From positions 64,001 through 125,635 of IMG/VR virus record IMGVR_UViG_3300033049_000033: a stretch of DNA of 61,635 nucleotides, one strand, 5' to 3'. This DNA is from a virus. Lineage: Duplodnaviria > Heunggongvirae > Uroviricota > Caudoviricetes. A model generated the notes under the pieces. The model was not told where the DNA came from. It searched no databases and saw only the letters and a program-made list of their open reading frames with translations. Both the position numbers and the translations under genes were made by a program. Positions 25,824 to 51,851 of the stretch are shown here, piece after piece. The stretch's first letter is position 1. The number at the start of each line of letters is the position of its first letter.

Positions 25824-27239
25824 ATGGCTAAGATTGATAAGCGTATTTCGTTTCTCGCTCAGAAGTTTAACGTCTTTGATATCGAAGATGTTGAGGATAA
25901 TGAGGAAGAGTTTACAAAAGCTGGATATAGCGATATTGAGGTGGTGGCAGACCCCCTTACTGAAGATACCATTGCGTTGTTATCGGAGAAGTACCGTAAT
26001 GAGAAGTCGACCAAGAAACTACGTAAGATAGCTGTTGAAATAACCATCTTTGGTAGAATGATTTCTGCCGACCCCACGAACAATAAGCAGTTCGTCCAAT
26101 GGATGTTAACTGTATTCACTAACTTCCTTAAAGACCGAGACATTAGTGAGGCCATCAGGTTTGCCTGTGAAGACCTCCCTAGGGCTAAAGAGTATTTAGA
26201 GGTTTTCGAAGCCAATAAACGTAAGGCCAGCTTTAAGAGGTTCTGTGATAAGAACTTCAGTTTAAGACATATCGATGACTGTACTAATATTGACCAATAT
26301 CACAGCCTTTCAGAGCTATTTGATGCAGTTGACCCATTCATTGAGAAGGATGTATCTGGCCTGAAAAGAGACCTTATGCGTTTCGTTAATAATGGTGATG
26401 CAGAGATTACGTTCAAAGACCGACATTTTATCGTTTACATTCCACTAACCAGAGACGCTTCAACCGTATTTAATAACTTTTCAAATTGGTGTACAAACTC
26501 TCCAGGAAATGGAATGTATAAGAGTTATACCGACAATCTAAGACCAGACAAGAGCAAATCTAAGTTATACGTGATTATTCCGACTGACTATTTTACAGGA
26601 GAAACTGAGGAAATATATCAGCTTCATTTTGAAAGTAACCAATTCATGGATAGAAAAGACCGTAGAGCTAACATTGTAGAACTATTTGACATTAGTGAGG
26701 AGCTATCTGAATACTTCGAAGATGAATTATTTGACATATTGGGTCAGTGTAATTCTATTATCGATAGGAACTATAAGAATTGGTTATTCCAGTTCAATCT
26801 TGGGTATGTTATGTTCTCTTTTATGGACGATAAAATGCTTAATCTCAGGTTCAAGAATGATATGCTTGGTAAAATACCAGATACTATCAGTAGATTCACA
26901 AACTTAAAACACTTAGTTGTGACCAAATGTAGGGTTAAATCAATTGATGAGAATATTGGTGACCTAACCAACCTAACTGTTTTAGGTTTAAATGACAATA
27001 AACTGACCAGATTACCTATAAATCTATGTAAGTTGAAGAGTCTCAAGTTTTTAAGCTTAACTGATAATCCCATTAAGGATATAGATAAGAGCATATCAAA
27101 TTTAGACATATCAAATGGAGGGTCGTTAGAATGGGTGGTGGTATCAAAAAAATCTGTCGCTGACAAATTATCTCGCTATTTACCTAATGCAGAGATAGAC
27201 GTAATCAGCAGAACAAAGCATAGCTACGAGAACCTATAA
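25824..27239 (+). CDS. leucine-rich-repeat fusion protein
   Basis: C-terminal LxxLxLxxNxLxxLP repeats (LTVLGLNDNKLTRLP, LKFLSLTDNPIKDI); N-terminal domain with ADPT.NK..QW and NWCT motifs. Confidence 0.8.
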   Translation: MAKIDKRISFLAQKFNVFDIEDVEDNEEEFTKAGYSDIEVVADPLTEDTIALLSEKYRNEKSTKKLRKIAVEITIFGRMISADPTNNKQFVQWMLTVFTNFLKDRDISEAIRFACEDLPRAKEYLEVFEANKRKASFKRFCDKNFSLRHIDDCTNIDQYHSLSELFDAVDPFIEKDVSGLKRDLMRFVNNGDAEITFKDRHFIVYIPLTRDASTVFNNFSNWCTNSPGNGMYKSYTDNLRPDKSKSKLYVIIPTDYFTGETEEIYQLHFESNQFMDRKDRRANIVELFDISEELSEYFEDELFDILGQCNSIIDRNYKNWLFQFNLGYVMFSFMDDKMLNLRFKNDMLGKIPDTISRFTNLKHLVVTKCRVKSIDENIGDLTNLTVLGLNDNKLTRLPINLCKLKSLKFLSLTDNPIKDIDKSISNLDISNGGSLEWVVVSKKSVADKLSRYLPNAEIDVISRTKHSYENL

Positions 27240-27349
27240 TGGGATTTCTTAGTGTATTTTATGGGATAATGGGAAATAAGGGAGACTTTTACCCTTTTCT
27301 GTCATATTTATTAAGTGAAAAATAATTTAAGCTTAAAAAATATTTTGAT

Positions 27350-27547
27350 ATGTCTAACAAAAAAACACCTATAAACGAATCCGTAAAAATTACCGAGAAT
27401 GACTTGGTTGCAATGATTGAAGGTATTGTCCTTGAAGAAGTTGCTAAAGCAAAAGGTAAGTGGTTACAAGAACAAAAAGAGTCTAAAGAGACACTATTGG
27501 AGAACCGACTTGCTGCTCTAGAGAAGAGACTCTCTACCAAGAAGTAA
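27350..27547 (+). CDS. small late coiled-coil protein
   Basis: Late motif at 27304; INES, ITEN and LLEN motifs. Confidence 0.7.
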   Translation: MSNKKTPINESVKITENDLVAMIEGIVLEEVAKAKGKWLQEQKESKETLLENRLAALEKRLSTKK

Positions 27548-27568
27548 TTTAACCTATTCAAACATACT

Positions 27569-27602
27569 AAAAGCCAAGGCGTGATTACACGCCTTGGCTT
27601 TT
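27569..27602. terminator. bidirectional Rho-independent terminator
   Basis: AAAAGCCAAGGCGTG-ATTA-CACGCCTTGGCTTTT. Confidence 0.9.
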
Positions 27603-27651
27603 AACGTTACAGAAACTTGTATTTCTCGATAATTATACGTATCTTTGTTTA

Positions 27652-28341
27652 ATGCTAGAAATAAAAGAGACTTTAATACGTAAAGATGTCCCCCTTACTG
27701 TATCAGTAGAGAAGGACGAATTTATAGAAGCGAGTGAGAAAGCTTTTGATTGTGCTTTCAATGGTACATCGGAGTTCTATCCTTGGGAGCTTCCTGAGTC
27801 ATTACCATCCGAATTCTCTCTTGGAGTCATTGTGGGTGGCTCTGGTTCTGGAAAGTCTACAATGCTTAAAGAGTTTGGAAAAGAAGAAGTACCAAAATGG
27901 GATATTAATAAAGCGATAGTATCACATTTTGAATCTCCAGATGAAGCAATAAATAAACTTACAGCCGTAGGTTTGAATACGGTACCTTCTTGGTACAAAC
28001 CATATCAATCATTATCAAATGGGGAGAAGTTCAGGGCTGACCTTGCCCGTAAACTAAAAGACGGTGCAGTTATCGATGAGTTCACTAGTGTTGTGGATAG
28101 AAACGTAGCTAAGGCCGCAAGTATGGCTTTGGCCAGATATGTAAAAAATAATAACCTTAAAAATGTGGTAATATCAACGTGCCACCATGATATAGTCGAC
28201 TGGCTTGAACCTGAATGGGTTATAAATACTGATATGGGTCATTTGTATGACGGTTTTTTTTTGTCCGACCAGAAATCAATATCGAAGTATATAAGGCAGA
28301 CCGCAGTATCTGGGGAATGTTTAAAGACCATCACTATTTAA
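27652..28341 (+). CDS. ABC-type ATPase (N-terminal part of an ATPase-GNAT fusion)
   Basis: Walker A GGSGSGKST, signature LSNGEKFR, Walker B VIDEFTS. Confidence 0.9.
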   Translation: MLEIKETLIRKDVPLTVSVEKDEFIEASEKAFDCAFNGTSEFYPWELPESLPSEFSLGVIVGGSGSGKSTMLKEFGKEEVPKWDINKAIVSHFESPDEAINKLTAVGLNTVPSWYKPYQSLSNGEKFRADLARKLKDGAVIDEFTSVVDRNVAKAASMALARYVKNNNLKNVVISTCHHDIVDWLEPEWVINTDMGHLYDGFFLSDQKSISKYIRQTAVSGECLKTITI

Positions 28342-28733
28342 GCGGAGATTTAGCCACAGCATCAAGATGTTACGTTGGTATAATGAATGGTGAGGTAGTT
28401 GCCTTTAGTGCCAGTATGACAATGCCAAATGGGTACATTAAAAATGCTTGGAGGGGTCACAGAACGGTTGTATTACCAGATTATCAAGGAATGGGTATCG
28501 GGATGAGATTCTCTAATGCCATGGGTGAAATTCATTTAGCCGAGGGGCATAGATACTTCTCACGGACGGCACATCCTAAGATGATTTACTATCGTGAACA
28601 TTCCCCGTTATGGCGACCCACAAGTAAGAATATGAAACTTAGAAAAGATATTACACATAATAATATTTTCAATAATCATTATGCTGACAATAAACGTATT
28701 TGTGGTAGTCACGAATATATGGGTGAGTCATAA
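28254..28733 (+). CDS. GNAT acetyltransferase domain (-1 frame continuation of the ATPase)
   Basis: The -1 frame is open from the T9 run: FFFVRPEINIEVY...WGMFKDHHYL...RTVVLPDYQGMGIG (acetyl-CoA motif A). Confidence 0.8.
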   Translation, partial: FFFVRPEINIEVYKADRSIWGMFKDHHYLSGDLATASRCYVGIMNGEVVAFSASMTMPNGYIKNAWRGHRTVVLPDYQGMGIGMRFSNAMGEIHLAEGHRYFSRTAHPKMIYYREHSPLWRPTSKNMKLRKDITHNNIFNNHYADNKRICGSHEYMGES

Positions 28734-29594
28734 CGACTCTATAAGTTTATTATCAATATCCTCATCGTATTTTATTCTTATTAATTTTATCCCCATATTC
28801 TCACAATAATTTGTTTTTATATTATCGTTGTGTAATGTCTGCATGTGTCCAGCTATACCACCAAAACGCTTTACTGGTTTATAATGTTGTATTCCATCAT
28901 ACTCAATACAGATATTAAGCTCTGGTAAATAAAAATCAAATGGTAGTGGTAACTCATTTCTACAGTCGTTAAATCTATATTGTGATATAAAATTAACCTC
29001 CTCATTACGTAAATGTTGTTTTATTTGTTTCTCACCTTTAGACTCGCCACATATATTACACCCATGACCTTTCTTATGGTTTTTAGGTGTCTGCACGAAT
29101 TTACCATGTTCTGGGCACACAATAATAACTTTAGTAACGTTATTAGTATAGGACACTAAAGAATAATCGTATTTGTCTCCGTGAACCTTTTTAGATTTTC
29201 CTATAAATTCACTTACGGTATCTTTAAGTTTATTAGACGTCCTTTTTTTACCACATCGATAACATCCTTTACCAATTAAATGTTTGTTCGGTGTTTGATG
29301 GAATTGTCCGTGTTTGGAACAAACTATATTAACCTCAATATTACTACGCATATATTTAACTAACGAATAATCGTATTTATCCCCATGCACCTGTATAGCC
29401 TTCTGAATAAAACTATCAGTATTACTGGTTTTTGTTCTTACCCTATTTAACTTTGCGCAGTCTGGGCACCCTTTTCCGTATAAGTGATTATATATCATTT
29501 GTTCGAACTCGCCATGCTCTGAACAAATAATTGTAACTTTATCTTTAGTGGATAGAAATTCATATTTAGAATAATCGTATTTATCCCCATGCAC
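28728..29594 (-). mobile_element. freestanding homing endonuclease (Zn-ribbon repeats + Vsr/DUF559-like PD-(D/E)xK domain)
   Basis: Three HGDKYDYS...CxxHGxF...GxGCxxC repeats; LPFDFYLPELNICIEYDGIQHY; late motif at 29617-29624. Confidence 0.8.
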
Positions 29595-29643
29595 CTAAAC
29601 GAATTTTGTTTTCTTAATAAATATACGTATCTTTGTAAAACGA

Positions 29644-29808
29644 CATCCTAAGATGGGGTTTTACCGAGAGAACTCCAAATTATGGAGGGCAACTAGTAAG
29701 AATAGGAAGCTACGAAAAGATATTACACATAATAACATATTTAACAACCATTACGCTGATAACAAACGAATTTGTTTCAGTCACGAATATATAGGATATG
29801 ACAGCTAA
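29644..29808 (+). repeat. diverged second copy of the GNAT 3' end (vs 28572-28733)
   Basis: HPKMGFYRENSKLWRATSKNRKLRKDITHNNIFNNHYADNKRICFSHEYIGYDS vs HPKMIYYREHSPLWRPTSKNMKLRKDITHNNIFNNHYADNKRICGSHEYMGES. Confidence 0.9.
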
Positions 29809-30550
29809 ACAGACTATATTTGGACTCGTTTTACTATTCTTAATAGGTGGAGCACAATTCTATCAGAATATTAGGAAAGATAATAATATCAAGGAGATAA
29901 AAGAAATGTTGGAAACACATATAGAGGCTTCTAAGGTAGAAATTAAACTTCCTGATGGGTTTACCTATGTTTATGACCGATTTGCCATCTACAACGCTAA
30001 AATCGATACTCAGACAGTTATTACCTACCTTTCGGTAGTAGATAGTTTCGGGTTGCGAGAAGATAGTACCCATTTTGACTGGTTTATAGGTCAAATACTT
30101 TACGAGAGTGGCGCTAGACAGCGAAAGGCTGATGGTAGTATTCTTAGAGGTACTTCTGGTGAGGTAGGCATAGCACAGATTATGCCTTCAACTGCATTGG
30201 GAGTGTTATCTCAGATTAAAGACCCTAATATCTTATTGAGGTTGGGTGTTCACGATTTCTCATTTGCTAATAATAAATCAATTAAAAAGGTAAATAAAAT
30301 TAAACTAACCATTGAATGGTTAAGTGACATTAATAATAACCTGACATTGTGGGGATATATTATGCGAGGTAAAATGGAACGTAATGGGCTATTAAAAGGA
30401 TTGGTAGCGTACAATGCTGGTACTGGTGGAATGATGAAATTCATCAGTCAATTTCGTAAGCCTGAAAAGCATAAATATATTAAAGGGATTAGGGATACGC
30501 TACGTTATATAGCCAATAAAGGTTTAGTGCCCTCTTTGGAAAGCGTGTAA
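29798..30550 (+). CDS. lytic transglycosylase (SLT) with N-terminal membrane anchor
   Basis: LYESG (catalytic Glu), GIAQIMPSTA, AYNAG. Confidence 0.85.
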   Translation: MTAKQTIFGLVLLFLIGGAQFYQNIRKDNNIKEIKEMLETHIEASKVEIKLPDGFTYVYDRFAIYNAKIDTQTVITYLSVVDSFGLREDSTHFDWFIGQILYESGARQRKADGSILRGTSGEVGIAQIMPSTALGVLSQIKDPNILLRLGVHDFSFANNKSIKKVNKIKLTIEWLSDINNNLTLWGYIMRGKMERNGLLKGLVAYNAGTGGMMKFISQFRKPEKHKYIKGIRDTLRYIANKGLVPSLESV

Positions 30551-37232: not shown

Positions 37233-38102
37233 ATGACTAAGAAAAAATTAAATATTAGACCAGTAGGTCTTAAAGGCCGAGAGGTCAACGAAAGAATGCT
37301 GGAACTTATGGATGCAACTCTAATAAAGGAAGGTGTAGACCGTGGAGTATTAGAAATTACTAAGAAAGGTCCTGACGGAAAAGTGTATGCAATCGTTCGT
37401 GAAAATAAATATTACTATATTAAAACTGCTGACATGAAAGAAGGTCTTGTAAAGGAAGACTTCAAATACATGGGTGGTCTGGCAAACAAGAAAGATTTCG
37501 CATATCCATCATATGCAAAAGCACTTAAACACTTAAACCTTAAGTTTCATTCACTTAATGAATCATTAGGACTTGTTAGTTCAGCTAATATCTTTCGAGA
37601 TGATGAAATTGTTGAGACTAATATGTCTTACAAAAATTATGGTCACGTAGAGTATGATGCTAATATTGTAGACAAGAAAGGTGAGAAGCTTTCTTCCGAT
37701 GGTGTATCTGATGCTGCTGAAGAAGGGGTAACTGGTGATAACCTTACCAAGAATAAAGGTAAAGGAAAGGCTGATAATGAGTTCGCTAAAGCCTCCGACC
37801 CAATATTCGAAGATAAGATTGAATTGACTGATGCGGAAAAGATTATAGAAGGTATGCTTACTGGTGAAGAAATTGTAATTCCTGAACCTGAAGCTGACTA
37901 TGTATTCGAAGGTAATAATATAACAGTTAAGAAGCCAATGAGTATTTCAACTACCATTGAAGCCATTGACGAGACTATTTACAAGGTAACTGGTGAAGGT
38001 ACTAAAGAAGCTATGAGTGAAGCTGCTAACATCCTTAGAGGATTGAAGAAGGAAGAGGTCATCGCTGTCTTAGAAACCATTACTGGTAAAAAAAAAGTCT
38101 AA
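37233..38102 (+). CDS. late head-associated hypothetical protein (frame 0 part)
   Basis: 289 aa ending GGT AAA AAA AAA GTC TAA; IKEG and LNES motifs. Confidence 0.8.
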   Translation: MTKKKLNIRPVGLKGREVNERMLELMDATLIKEGVDRGVLEITKKGPDGKVYAIVRENKYYYIKTADMKEGLVKEDFKYMGGLANKKDFAYPSYAKALKHLNLKFHSLNESLGLVSSANIFRDDEIVETNMSYKNYGHVEYDANIVDKKGEKLSSDGVSDAAEEGVTGDNLTKNKGKGKADNEFAKASDPIFEDKIELTDAEKIIEGMLTGEEIVIPEPEADYVFEGNNITVKKPMSISTTIEAIDETIYKVTGEGTKEAMSEAANILRGLKKEEVIAVLETITGKKKV

Positions 38103-38848
38103 CCGAGACTAAGTACAAGCTTAAAATTGATAATCCAGCGCCTGTTCCAGAAATGGGTGACGATGGATTAGGTGGAGGTGGATTTGACGAGCCTACAACC
38201 GATAAGCCGTTTAATGACGAACCGTTCGAGGCTGGTGTAGAGGCCGATGAAACCGAAGACCCAAAACAGTACATCCAACAATTGGCTGGCAAAATTGGCC
38301 AATCCCTTAGAAAATATGAAAAAGATATAGGTGACCCAGACTTTGAATTAGAGAAGTTTGTGGTCAATTCTGTATTATCGGCAACCAATACTGGTGAGAT
38401 GGATTCTGAAGACCAAAAGGATATTATTACTAAAGTTAAATCTAGTGGTCTTGATAATGGAGGAGGAGATGACGTTGATGTGAATATTGATGCTGGTGGT
38501 GATGAAGAGGTTGATGTGAATATTGATGAGCCTGCTCCAGAGCCAGAAATGGAAGAAGGATTAGTGGAAGCTGGTAATAAAGACTTGCAAACGTCAGATG
38601 AAATCGGTAACTTTGTAAAAGGAATACAAGCTTTAATGCAAAAAGGTGCAGAAGGTGGGATGGAAGAAACAATAGGTATACATAACAACGAAGAGGATAC
38701 AAGAGATGATTTAGATTTAGGTTTAGATAATATTCCAGTTGTAGAGCCTGAAGTTAAACCCATAGTAAAGCCAACGAGACGTAGGTCTCCTTTTACCCCA
38801 CCTGATAAGAAGCCTAAAGTTGACCCTAAACCTAAATTTGGAGTATGA
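38090..38848 (+). CDS. acidic -1 frame extension of the 37233 protein (or separate ORF from ATG 38153)
   Basis: The -1 frame is open from the A9 run: KKSLTETKYKLKIDNPAPVPEMGDD... Confidence 0.7.
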   Translation, partial: KKSLTETKYKLKIDNPAPVPEMGDDGLGGGGFDEPTTDKPFNDEPFEAGVEADETEDPKQYIQQLAGKIGQSLRKYEKDIGDPDFELEKFVVNSVLSATNTGEMDSEDQKDIITKVKSSGLDNGGGDDVDVNIDAGGDEEVDVNIDEPAPEPEMEEGLVEAGNKDLQTSDEIGNFVKGIQALMQKGAEGGMEETIGIHNNEEDTRDDLDLGLDNIPVVEPEVKPIVKPTRRRSPFTPPDKKPKVDPKPKFGV

Positions 38849-51048: not shown

Positions 51049-51082
51049 AAAAAAAAGCCTATCTTCGGATAGGCTTTTTTTT
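51049..51082. terminator. bidirectional Rho-independent terminator
   Basis: A8-GCCTATC-TTCG-GATAGGC-T8 between convergent genes. Confidence 0.92.
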
Positions 51083-51760: not shown

Positions 51761-51851
51761 CCGAATGTTTAAGTTAAATGTTTATGGTACAAAGATACAA
51801 AAAAAAAGCCAGTAAAACAAATTACTGGCAATTTTAATCGATTCTCTAAGG

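Follow-up and report, generated by a model that had tools for sequence, protein, structure and literature searches.

A run of nine T residues (T9) at positions 28254-28262 of the phage DNA analysed here is considered, with a probability of about 0.9, to be a programmed recoding site, whether used by RNA polymerase or by the ribosome, at which an ABC-type ATPase is joined to a GNAT acetyltransferase encoded in the -1 frame. This reading is drawn from the sequence: the run and the two frames are conserved, purifying selection acts on the GNAT part, which lacks a start of its own, the outgroups are fused, and one sub-lineage carries a frameshift heptamer cassette in place of the run. A junction of this type had been proposed in the first-pass annotation of the DNA, and the proposal is borne out by the same observations. 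The window, i.e., the whole stretch of DNA analysed, makes up the final 61.6 kb of a seawater contig in IMG/VR that is 125,635 bp long; the contig is estimated by CheckV to be 35% complete, which implies a phage genome of about 360 kb.

Sequence of the ATPase-GNAT junction

The site reads GAC GGT TTT TTT TTG TCC, and an in-frame heptamer of the X_XXY_YYZ type, T_TTT_TTT, is present at 28254-28260 in the ATPase frame; run and heptamer are confirmed by the sequence as the first-pass annotation had described them. The features at the junction are as follows.

27652-28341, plus strand: frame-0 open reading frame of 229 aa, ABC-type ATPase with a 26-aa out-of-frame tail; product of standard decoding
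28238-28251, plus strand: weak 5-bp hairpin, GTCAT-TTGT-ATGAC, ending 2 nt before T9; possible stimulator of slippage, acting in the nascent RNA
28254-28262, plus strand: T9, putative recoding site with the heptamer T_TTT_TTT in frame; codes for the linker residues FFF between the domains
28263-28341, plus strand: zone open in two frames, GNAT N-terminus (-1) and ATPase tail (0)
28263-28733, plus strand: GNAT acetyltransferase domain in the -1 frame; stop at 28731-28733

Translation likewise reproduces the frames described earlier, namely a -1 frame closed by TGA just upstream of the run, 21 residues added to the GNAT, and a 26-aa tail in frame 0. The TGA lies at 28248-28250, after which the -1 frame reads R-FFF-VRPEINIEVYKADRSIWG-MFKDHHYL and meets no further stop before 28731-28733; the 21 residues precede a Met at 28317. 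Joined through the run, 27652-28262 and the -1 GNAT frame yield a 360-aa fusion. Only three A/T runs of nine occur within the 61.6-kb window, the one at 28254-28262 included, and T9 is invariant in 59 of 80 related loci whose flanks are variable; T9 is therefore considered to be more than a chance occurrence.

The length of the run was judged from assembled contigs and not from raw reads, so that minority lengths in the population would not show. Logan assembled the probable source run into a 60-kb contig (depth 20) that is without an indel at T9. Over 28150-28357 a contig from a second sample, taken in the same study, agrees with the window at every position; over 28235-28338 a contig of ~91% identity, from an unrelated metagenome of the subsurface, shows 9 substitutions and no gap. 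A run of ten, which would leave the gene as a single intact frame, had been named in the first-pass annotation as the observation that would speak against recoding; the contigs, that of the second sample included, carry T9. An error of sequencing or assembly is ruled out by the independent contigs together with the 59 loci that carry T9.

Differences to the window are found elsewhere in these assemblies. The source-run and second-sample contigs share an A>C change at 29597 and a 25-nt insertion behind 29608, between a homing-endonuclease gene and an orphaned GNAT 3' end; these represent either an assembly difference or a population variant. In a contig from an unrelated subsurface metagenome (X4, record 15), position 27818 is joined to 28196 with 11 other letters between, which removes 377 nt of the ATPase core and leaves the region of the T run in place; as the left arm is only ~81% identical, this join is possibly spurious.

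Domains and family of the encoded protein

The ATPase half is of a divergent ABC type, with a weak Pfam match to ABC_tran (E 7.6e-5); the window encodes a Walker A motif (GGSGSGKST), a signature (LSNGEK), a Walker B motif (VIDEFTS) and an H-loop (CHHD). The GNAT half is matched in Pfam by Acetyltransf_7 and Acetyltransf_1 only and displays a β1 strand (EINIEVY) and an acyl-CoA motif (QGMGIG; Q/RxxGxG/A), in which Q278, G279, G281 and G283 are invariant across a 42-sequence alignment. NCBIfam returns sub-threshold ABC transporter matches only and no named family. Both halves match a single phage family of 357 positions, phrog_11143, which spans them end to end: the ATPase at positions 8-203 (E 2.8e-61) and the GNAT at positions 200-351 (E 2.3e-37); from this it is concluded that the family is normally one protein. 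The JGI name for the protein is 'ABC-type ATPase with predicted acetyltransferase domain'.

An AlphaFold2 model was made of L065, a natural homolog of 363 aa in which T10 places both domains in frame, from the 42-sequence alignment (pLDDT 89, pTM 0.82). Residues 8-204 of the model form an ABC nucleotide-binding-domain fold (Z 12-13) and residues 206-359 a complete GNAT from the first residue (Z 13.4, to 1y9k). On these modelled boundaries the FFF encoded by T9 is interdomain linker with β1 coded directly behind it; the junction, ...DGFFFVRPE..., sits in the linker 3-5 residues before GNAT β1. The 21 added residues had been thought to look like a real domain start, and the model agrees, with the GNAT fold and its β1 beginning right after T9. 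The top structural matches of the GNAT are generic N-acetyltransferases; a Mom structure is not among them, an absence that is uninformative.

Iyer et al. (2013, NAR 41:7635) reportedly presented the phage ABC ATPase-GNAT as a predicted DNA-base acyl-modification enzyme. A GNAT coupled to an ABC ATPase, exemplified by Tenacibaculum phage pT24, is described by Iyer et al. (2021; PMC7824862), and the pair is predicted there to make an uncharacterised acyl modification of a DNA base; in the portion of that source that concerns it, the ATPase-coupled GNAT is another GNAT-superfamily protein, separate from the Mom family. The earlier description as a 'Mom-like' GNAT fused to an ABC ATPase is accordingly a loose one as regards Mom. 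Phage pT24 is homologous to both halves of the gene, with 43% identity in the ATPase and 37% in the GNAT. That the enzyme acylates a DNA base is a prediction taken from the literature, and an anti-restriction role may be supposed.

The temperate-phage versions of the gene typically have a ParB-like neighbour, whereas no such gene lies next to it in the window or adjacent to it in the jumbo-phage clade. ParB_N is absent from the window's 125-kb record, and one of three complete relatives has a ParB_N that does not adjoin the gene; the ParB link of temperate phages therefore does not carry over to the jumbo phages. A VSR/DUF723-type homing endonuclease gene (28728-29594, minus strand; phrog_559, E 5e-71) lies antisense at the GNAT 3' end; in a search of the phage collection for near DNA relatives, matches were confined to this endonuclease part. 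A 51-aa open reading frame at 29653-29808 on the plus strand repeats the GNAT C-terminus with 83% identity over residues 106-157, which suggests that the endonuclease brought along a substitute for the GNAT 3' end, by which the original was displaced; the C-terminal SHEY-G motif of the family is retained in the GNAT copy that is used.

Conservation of the junction among related loci

The best 120 protein matches to the 229-aa open reading frame show 70-93% identity, and nearly all are exactly 229 aa long. At the DNA level, 80 related IMG/VR loci from many metagenomes were fetched and both halves were mapped by tblastn. The sequence GG-T9-G with the GNAT in the -1 frame is found at 59 of them, which have 60-77% identity to the window in the ATPase and 49-75% in the GNAT. 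One further locus (L016) carries T8 followed by C, giving TTC as the third Phe codon, and keeps the -1 frame; three (L062, L065 and L066) carry T10 and are in frame; three (L067-69) have A_AAT_TTT_A in place of the run with the GNAT in the -1 frame; thirteen more distant loci (52-59% identity) have no run and are in frame; and one locus is truncated. A conserved T-run with split frames among homologs, the pattern anticipated in the first-pass annotation, is thus seen at 59 of the 80 loci, and the length of nine is kept in 59 of the 63 that bear a run.

Constraint on the run extends to codon choice. Each of the 46 unique sequences in the alignment has GG-T9, with adjacent codons that vary freely, and the Gly codon before T9 is GGT in 51 of 51, compared with 39-82% GGT at 16 further Gly columns that are conserved. 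Of 49 unique -1 loci, 48 have TTT as the third Phe codon, compared with 10-31% TTC at other conserved Phe columns; the figure of 48 in 49 overstates independence, since Phe is preferentially encoded by TTT in any case and the loci share a phylogenetic history. The Arg after T9 is encoded by CGN in 94%, where AGR dominates other conserved Arg columns, and a conserved block, G-Y-CCG-N-CC, lies directly behind T9.

In a maximum-likelihood tree the run-bearing loci form one clade (support 95/92), whose rows comprise 48 unique T9, one T8, two T10 at separate tips and two heptamer sequences; the heptamer lineage is nested inside the clade, and the in-frame forms without a run fall outside. From this topology the fused state is considered ancestral, and the T9 split is considered to have arisen once and to have been maintained. 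Single fused proteins of ~360 aa are seen in the outgroups, in cultured phages (pT24, PX29, P12024S, phiE255 and Jace) and in phrog_11143; the natural T10 variants are in-frame fusions, and fused relatives of 361-365 aa are present in the protein database.

The T10 tips bear on an explanation at the DNA level, whereby replication slippage would alternate the gene between T9 (off) and T10 (on) and neither RNA nor protein would be recoded. Long homopolymers are mutable, T10 is in frame at two independent tips (L062 and L065/L066), and the fused database relatives would fit such switching; however, a contingency locus would be expected to scatter in length, and the run-bearing loci, drawn from many samples, divide into 59 T9, three T10 and one T8. 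Almost every locus would also be in the 'off' state, despite the purifying selection on the GNAT; in the lineage with heptamer and hairpin the -1 split persists although no mutable run is present; and the source-sample contig (depth 20) has T9, with the proviso that contigs hide minorities. Switching of this kind is considered very improbable, and the suggestion in the first-pass annotation that the run may be phase-varying is not upheld.

Probable translation of the GNAT domain through the run

Compared pairwise, the T9 loci have a dN/dS of 0.136 in the ATPase and of 0.203 in the GNAT, values that point to purifying selection on the GNAT part. Of 48 unique T9 loci, 44 are without ATG, GTG or TTG in the -1 frame between its upstream stop and T9. 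The codon of Met 28317 is ATG in most relatives and is replaced by ATC in L064, CTG in L056 and GTG in L013; the 18 codons between T9 and this Met belong to the GNAT fold and form β1 in the L065 model, so that initiation at Met 28317 would delete β1. An independent start of the GNAT is ruled out by the missing start codons, the non-conserved Met and the beginning of the GNAT fold at T9. Over the 18 codons (~54 nt) behind T9, where both frames are open, dS is 0.44-0.46 compared with 1.12-1.15 in the flanks; lowered dS of this kind is usually the mark of an overlap or an embedded signal. The frame-0 tail measures 28 codons from T9 in 47 of 48 loci.

It is hardly credible, given these data, that the two domains have no functional link, i.e., that the locus is a decaying pseudogene, that the run is an artefact, or that an ATPase and a shorter GNAT from Met 28317 are made separately. 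Gene callers and public annotations do give two open reading frames, and ATG 28317 is present in most relatives; against this stand the dN/dS values of 0.14 and 0.20 for the two halves, the β1 strand encoded ahead of a Met that is not conserved, the recurrence of T9 in independent assemblies and samples as well as at 59 loci, and the fused state of the family profile and the outgroups.

Proposed route of the frame shift

The route by which the frame is shifted is one that we infer. The gene would descend from a single ABC-ATPase-GNAT protein of ~360 aa; standard decoding would yield the 229-aa ATPase with its short tail, and a fraction of expression would shift to the -1 frame inside T9 to give the full ATPase-GNAT enzyme. 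In the transcriptional form of this event the 9-bp rU:dA hybrid would realign and one extra U would be added, so that ordinary decoding of the U10 mRNAs would yield the fusion; a contribution from -1 slippage of the ribosome on U_UUU_UUU is possible. The two products, short and long, may act together in a set ratio, in which case the proportion of free ATPase to ATPase-GNAT would matter.

Slippage of RNA polymerase is considered the most likely route, ahead of ribosomal slippage, and is given about even odds of being the main one in the T9 clade. Bacterial RNA polymerase slips with high efficiency at nine A or T residues, the hybrid being 9-10 bp long, and a 5' nascent hairpin can stimulate the event; 9-mer A/T runs are used in Thermus dnaX and Shigella mxiE (these points from the part of PMC5009743 that treats slippage sites). 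At the present locus a homopolymer of about nine, the length of the hybrid, is present, and one added nucleotide leads into the frame of the GNAT. The length of nine is maintained, although seven T would suffice for the heptamer, and a homopolymer of at least nine (A9/A10) likewise marks the other conserved -1 junction of these genomes. Upstream of T9, 5' hairpins have a mean MFE of -4.4 kcal/mol compared with a background of -2.15 kcal/mol (median percentile 18%); this enrichment is modest, the registers differ among lineages, and the hairpin offers a weak hint only. The combination of a hairpin and T9 may also recall an intrinsic terminator; none was found by a consensus scan of 27200-30000, and the stem is weak. 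On the other side, U_UUU_UUU is itself a canonical in-frame slippery heptamer, and L067-69 show that a purely ribosomal signal can serve the gene; the transcribing polymerase may be that of the host or of the phage.

The competing route, -1 frameshifting of the ribosome on U_UUU_UUU (28254-28260) as the main event, with the mRNA kept at U9 and tandem tRNA-Phe slipping back, is a real but lesser possibility. It draws on the canonical heptamer in the proper frame, and on relatives with translational designs at the same junction: in the nested L067-69 lineage A_AAT_TTT is followed by a 6-nt spacer and a hairpin, and Streptococcus phage homologs with a -1 junction have a U_UUU tetramer and hairpins of z -3.9 and -4.3 with one compensatory change. 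The synonymous constraint over ~54 nt downstream of T9 could reflect a signal in the mRNA as well. However, the stimulatory RNA structure that a ribosomal cassette has 5-9 nt downstream is lacking in the T9 loci: folding of the alignment by RNAalifold gives -1.67 kcal/mol with 0 compensatory pairs, and z is -0.20 for the window and -0.23 for L020. The conservation of two T beyond the heptamer and the homopolymer of at least nine at the other conserved junction also speak against a ribosomal main route. Shine-Dalgarno-type 5' stimulators are unlikely to act in Bacteroidota. The routes are not cleanly separable from DNA, as both yield the identical protein (...GFFFVRPE...); polymerase slippage stays the favoured of the two for the T9 clade.

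Probable recoding signals in relatives and at a second site

In L067-69 the run is replaced by A_AAT_TTT and, after a spacer of 6 nt, a stem-loop with folding energies of -25.5 and -19.2 kcal/mol (z-scores -5.84 and -5.20), a cassette that is, by its sequence and predicted fold, a textbook ribosomal -1 signal. Loss of T9 in this nested lineage implies that a full ribosomal cassette was then needed.

A GNAT in the -1 frame at the same linker, annotated as two genes, is also found in temperate phages of Firmicutes: Streptococcus phages 315.4 (L086), Javan141 (L002) and MismyG (L087), Oenococcus phage Vinitor-27 (L003), and Thomasclavelia phages TR-TP1 and TR-TP2 (L001). The annotations there are 'ABC transporter' together with hypothetical or GNAT genes. 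The Streptococcus phages share CAG GTT TTT C, which contains a U_UUU tetramer, a type of frameshift signal (PMC4066793), followed by a hairpin with z of -4.33, -3.89 and -1.15; the hairpin shows one compensatory change, U:A to C:G, between MismyG and Javan141. The candidate sites in the Oenococcus and Thomasclavelia phages are A_AAG_GGC and a G5 run, and no significant RNA structure was found at them. Judged by their reading frames, these Firmicutes temperate-phage homologs are probably unrecognised -1 frameshift genes. In-frame homologs are present in Aeromonas, Vibrio, Nonlabens, Tenacibaculum, Burkholderia, Pseudomonas, Gordonia and Pasteurella phages. The linker between ATPase and GNAT may tentatively be regarded, at a little short of even odds, as a recurrent hotspot of -1 recoding throughout the family, with at least three signals in unrelated lineages (T9; heptamer and hairpin; U_UUU and hairpin).

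The only other coding A/T 9-mer of the window is A9 at 38088-38096 (GGT-A9-GTC-TAA), which forms a -1 junction between open reading frames 37233-38102 and 38153-38848 in the head module. The homologous spot reads NNA-A9, an A10 run, in five of five related genomes, three of them complete, and one codon and then a stop follow in four; in all likelihood recoding of the same type takes place at this second conserved junction. The third A/T 9-mer, A9 at 51799-51807, is intergenic. An A8...T8 palindrome around a GC stem at 51049-51082 has the appearance of a bidirectional terminator.

Comparison with known recoded genes

The mxiE gene of Shigella flexneri and other spa/mxi genes undergo transcriptional slippage at T9 (Penno et al. 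2005, 2006; in part PMC5009743 and PMC3711429). The present locus resembles mxiE in that T9 lies on the coding strand, the mRNA must gain one nucleotide for the longer, functional product to be made, and a downstream RNA structure is not required. It differs in that mxiE is a bacterial regulator with a short upstream open reading frame, whereas the site here falls between the two domains of a phage enzyme, in their linker, with a whole domain as the upstream product; the site is kept across a large viral clade, and slippage is proposed from the sequence.

A closer parallel in design is dnaX, whose tau and gamma products arise in E. coli by a -1 frameshift at A_AAA_AAG with a hairpin and in Thermus thermophilus by slippage at a 9-mer (Larsen et al. 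2000; PMC5009743, in its treatment of dnaX). In both genes homologs reach two products sharing an N-terminal ATPase through either a homopolymer or a heptamer with a hairpin, here the T9 clade and L067-69. The recoded product is shorter in dnaX and longer here, the protein families differ, and a stoichiometric role is established for dnaX and would be expected by analogy here. Within its own family, the window's gene shares the domain order and the acyl-CoA motif of the ABC ATPase-GNAT proteins of Iyer et al., pT24 among them; the members described are single in-frame open reading frames, whereas the window's clade is split by a conserved -1 site.

Among phage genes, the tail assembly chaperone G/GT is a structural-assembly factor that is recoded at a heptamer of the G_GGA_AAG type. 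Like the present gene, it is a phage gene that gives a short and a C-terminally extended product by way of a -1 shift, in a ratio that is set for G/GT and would be so here; the present gene codes for an enzyme, with a 9-mer homopolymer as its signal and a catalytic domain as its extension. TmcA/NAT10 joins a P-loop ATPase to a GNAT that acetylates a nucleobase; TmcA has an ATPase of the helicase type, and its substrate is tRNA. It may serve as a working analogy for an ATP-driven base-acylating enzyme, with the difference that the ATPase here is of the ABC type.

Implications

Recoding in the ATPase-GNAT family was not found described in the literature on slippage, jumbo phages, ABC ATPases, GNAT and ParB, and the T9 junction appears to be an unreported case of a known mechanism, slippage of RNA polymerase or of the ribosome. 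To our knowledge, conserved recoding sites are few outside IS elements, dnaX, prfB and phage tail chaperones. What is new here, as read from aligned sequences, is an unusually well-conserved site and a dnaX-like alternation of designs among orthologs. The T9 site is kept across dozens of uncultured jumbo-phage genomes, and ~60% of the fetched related loci and most database entries for the gene are mis-annotated as two genes. Together with the A9/A10 of the head module, T9 suggests that runs of at least nine are a regular expression device in this phage group.

A homopolymer and a heptamer-plus-hairpin at the same junction provide a natural side-by-side comparison, in which transcriptional and translational recoding can be tested. 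If the linker is a recoding hotspot throughout the family, polymerase slippage and ribosomal frameshifting would be interchangeable within one clade, and a fixed ratio of free ATPase to ATPase-GNAT would be required. ABC domains dimerise, and such a ratio could be met, for instance, by an asymmetric ABC dimer with one catalytic GNAT, as in dnaX tau/gamma. With recoding at T9, the predicted ATPase-GNAT DNA-modification enzyme would work as two products, which is relevant to reconstituting its activity.
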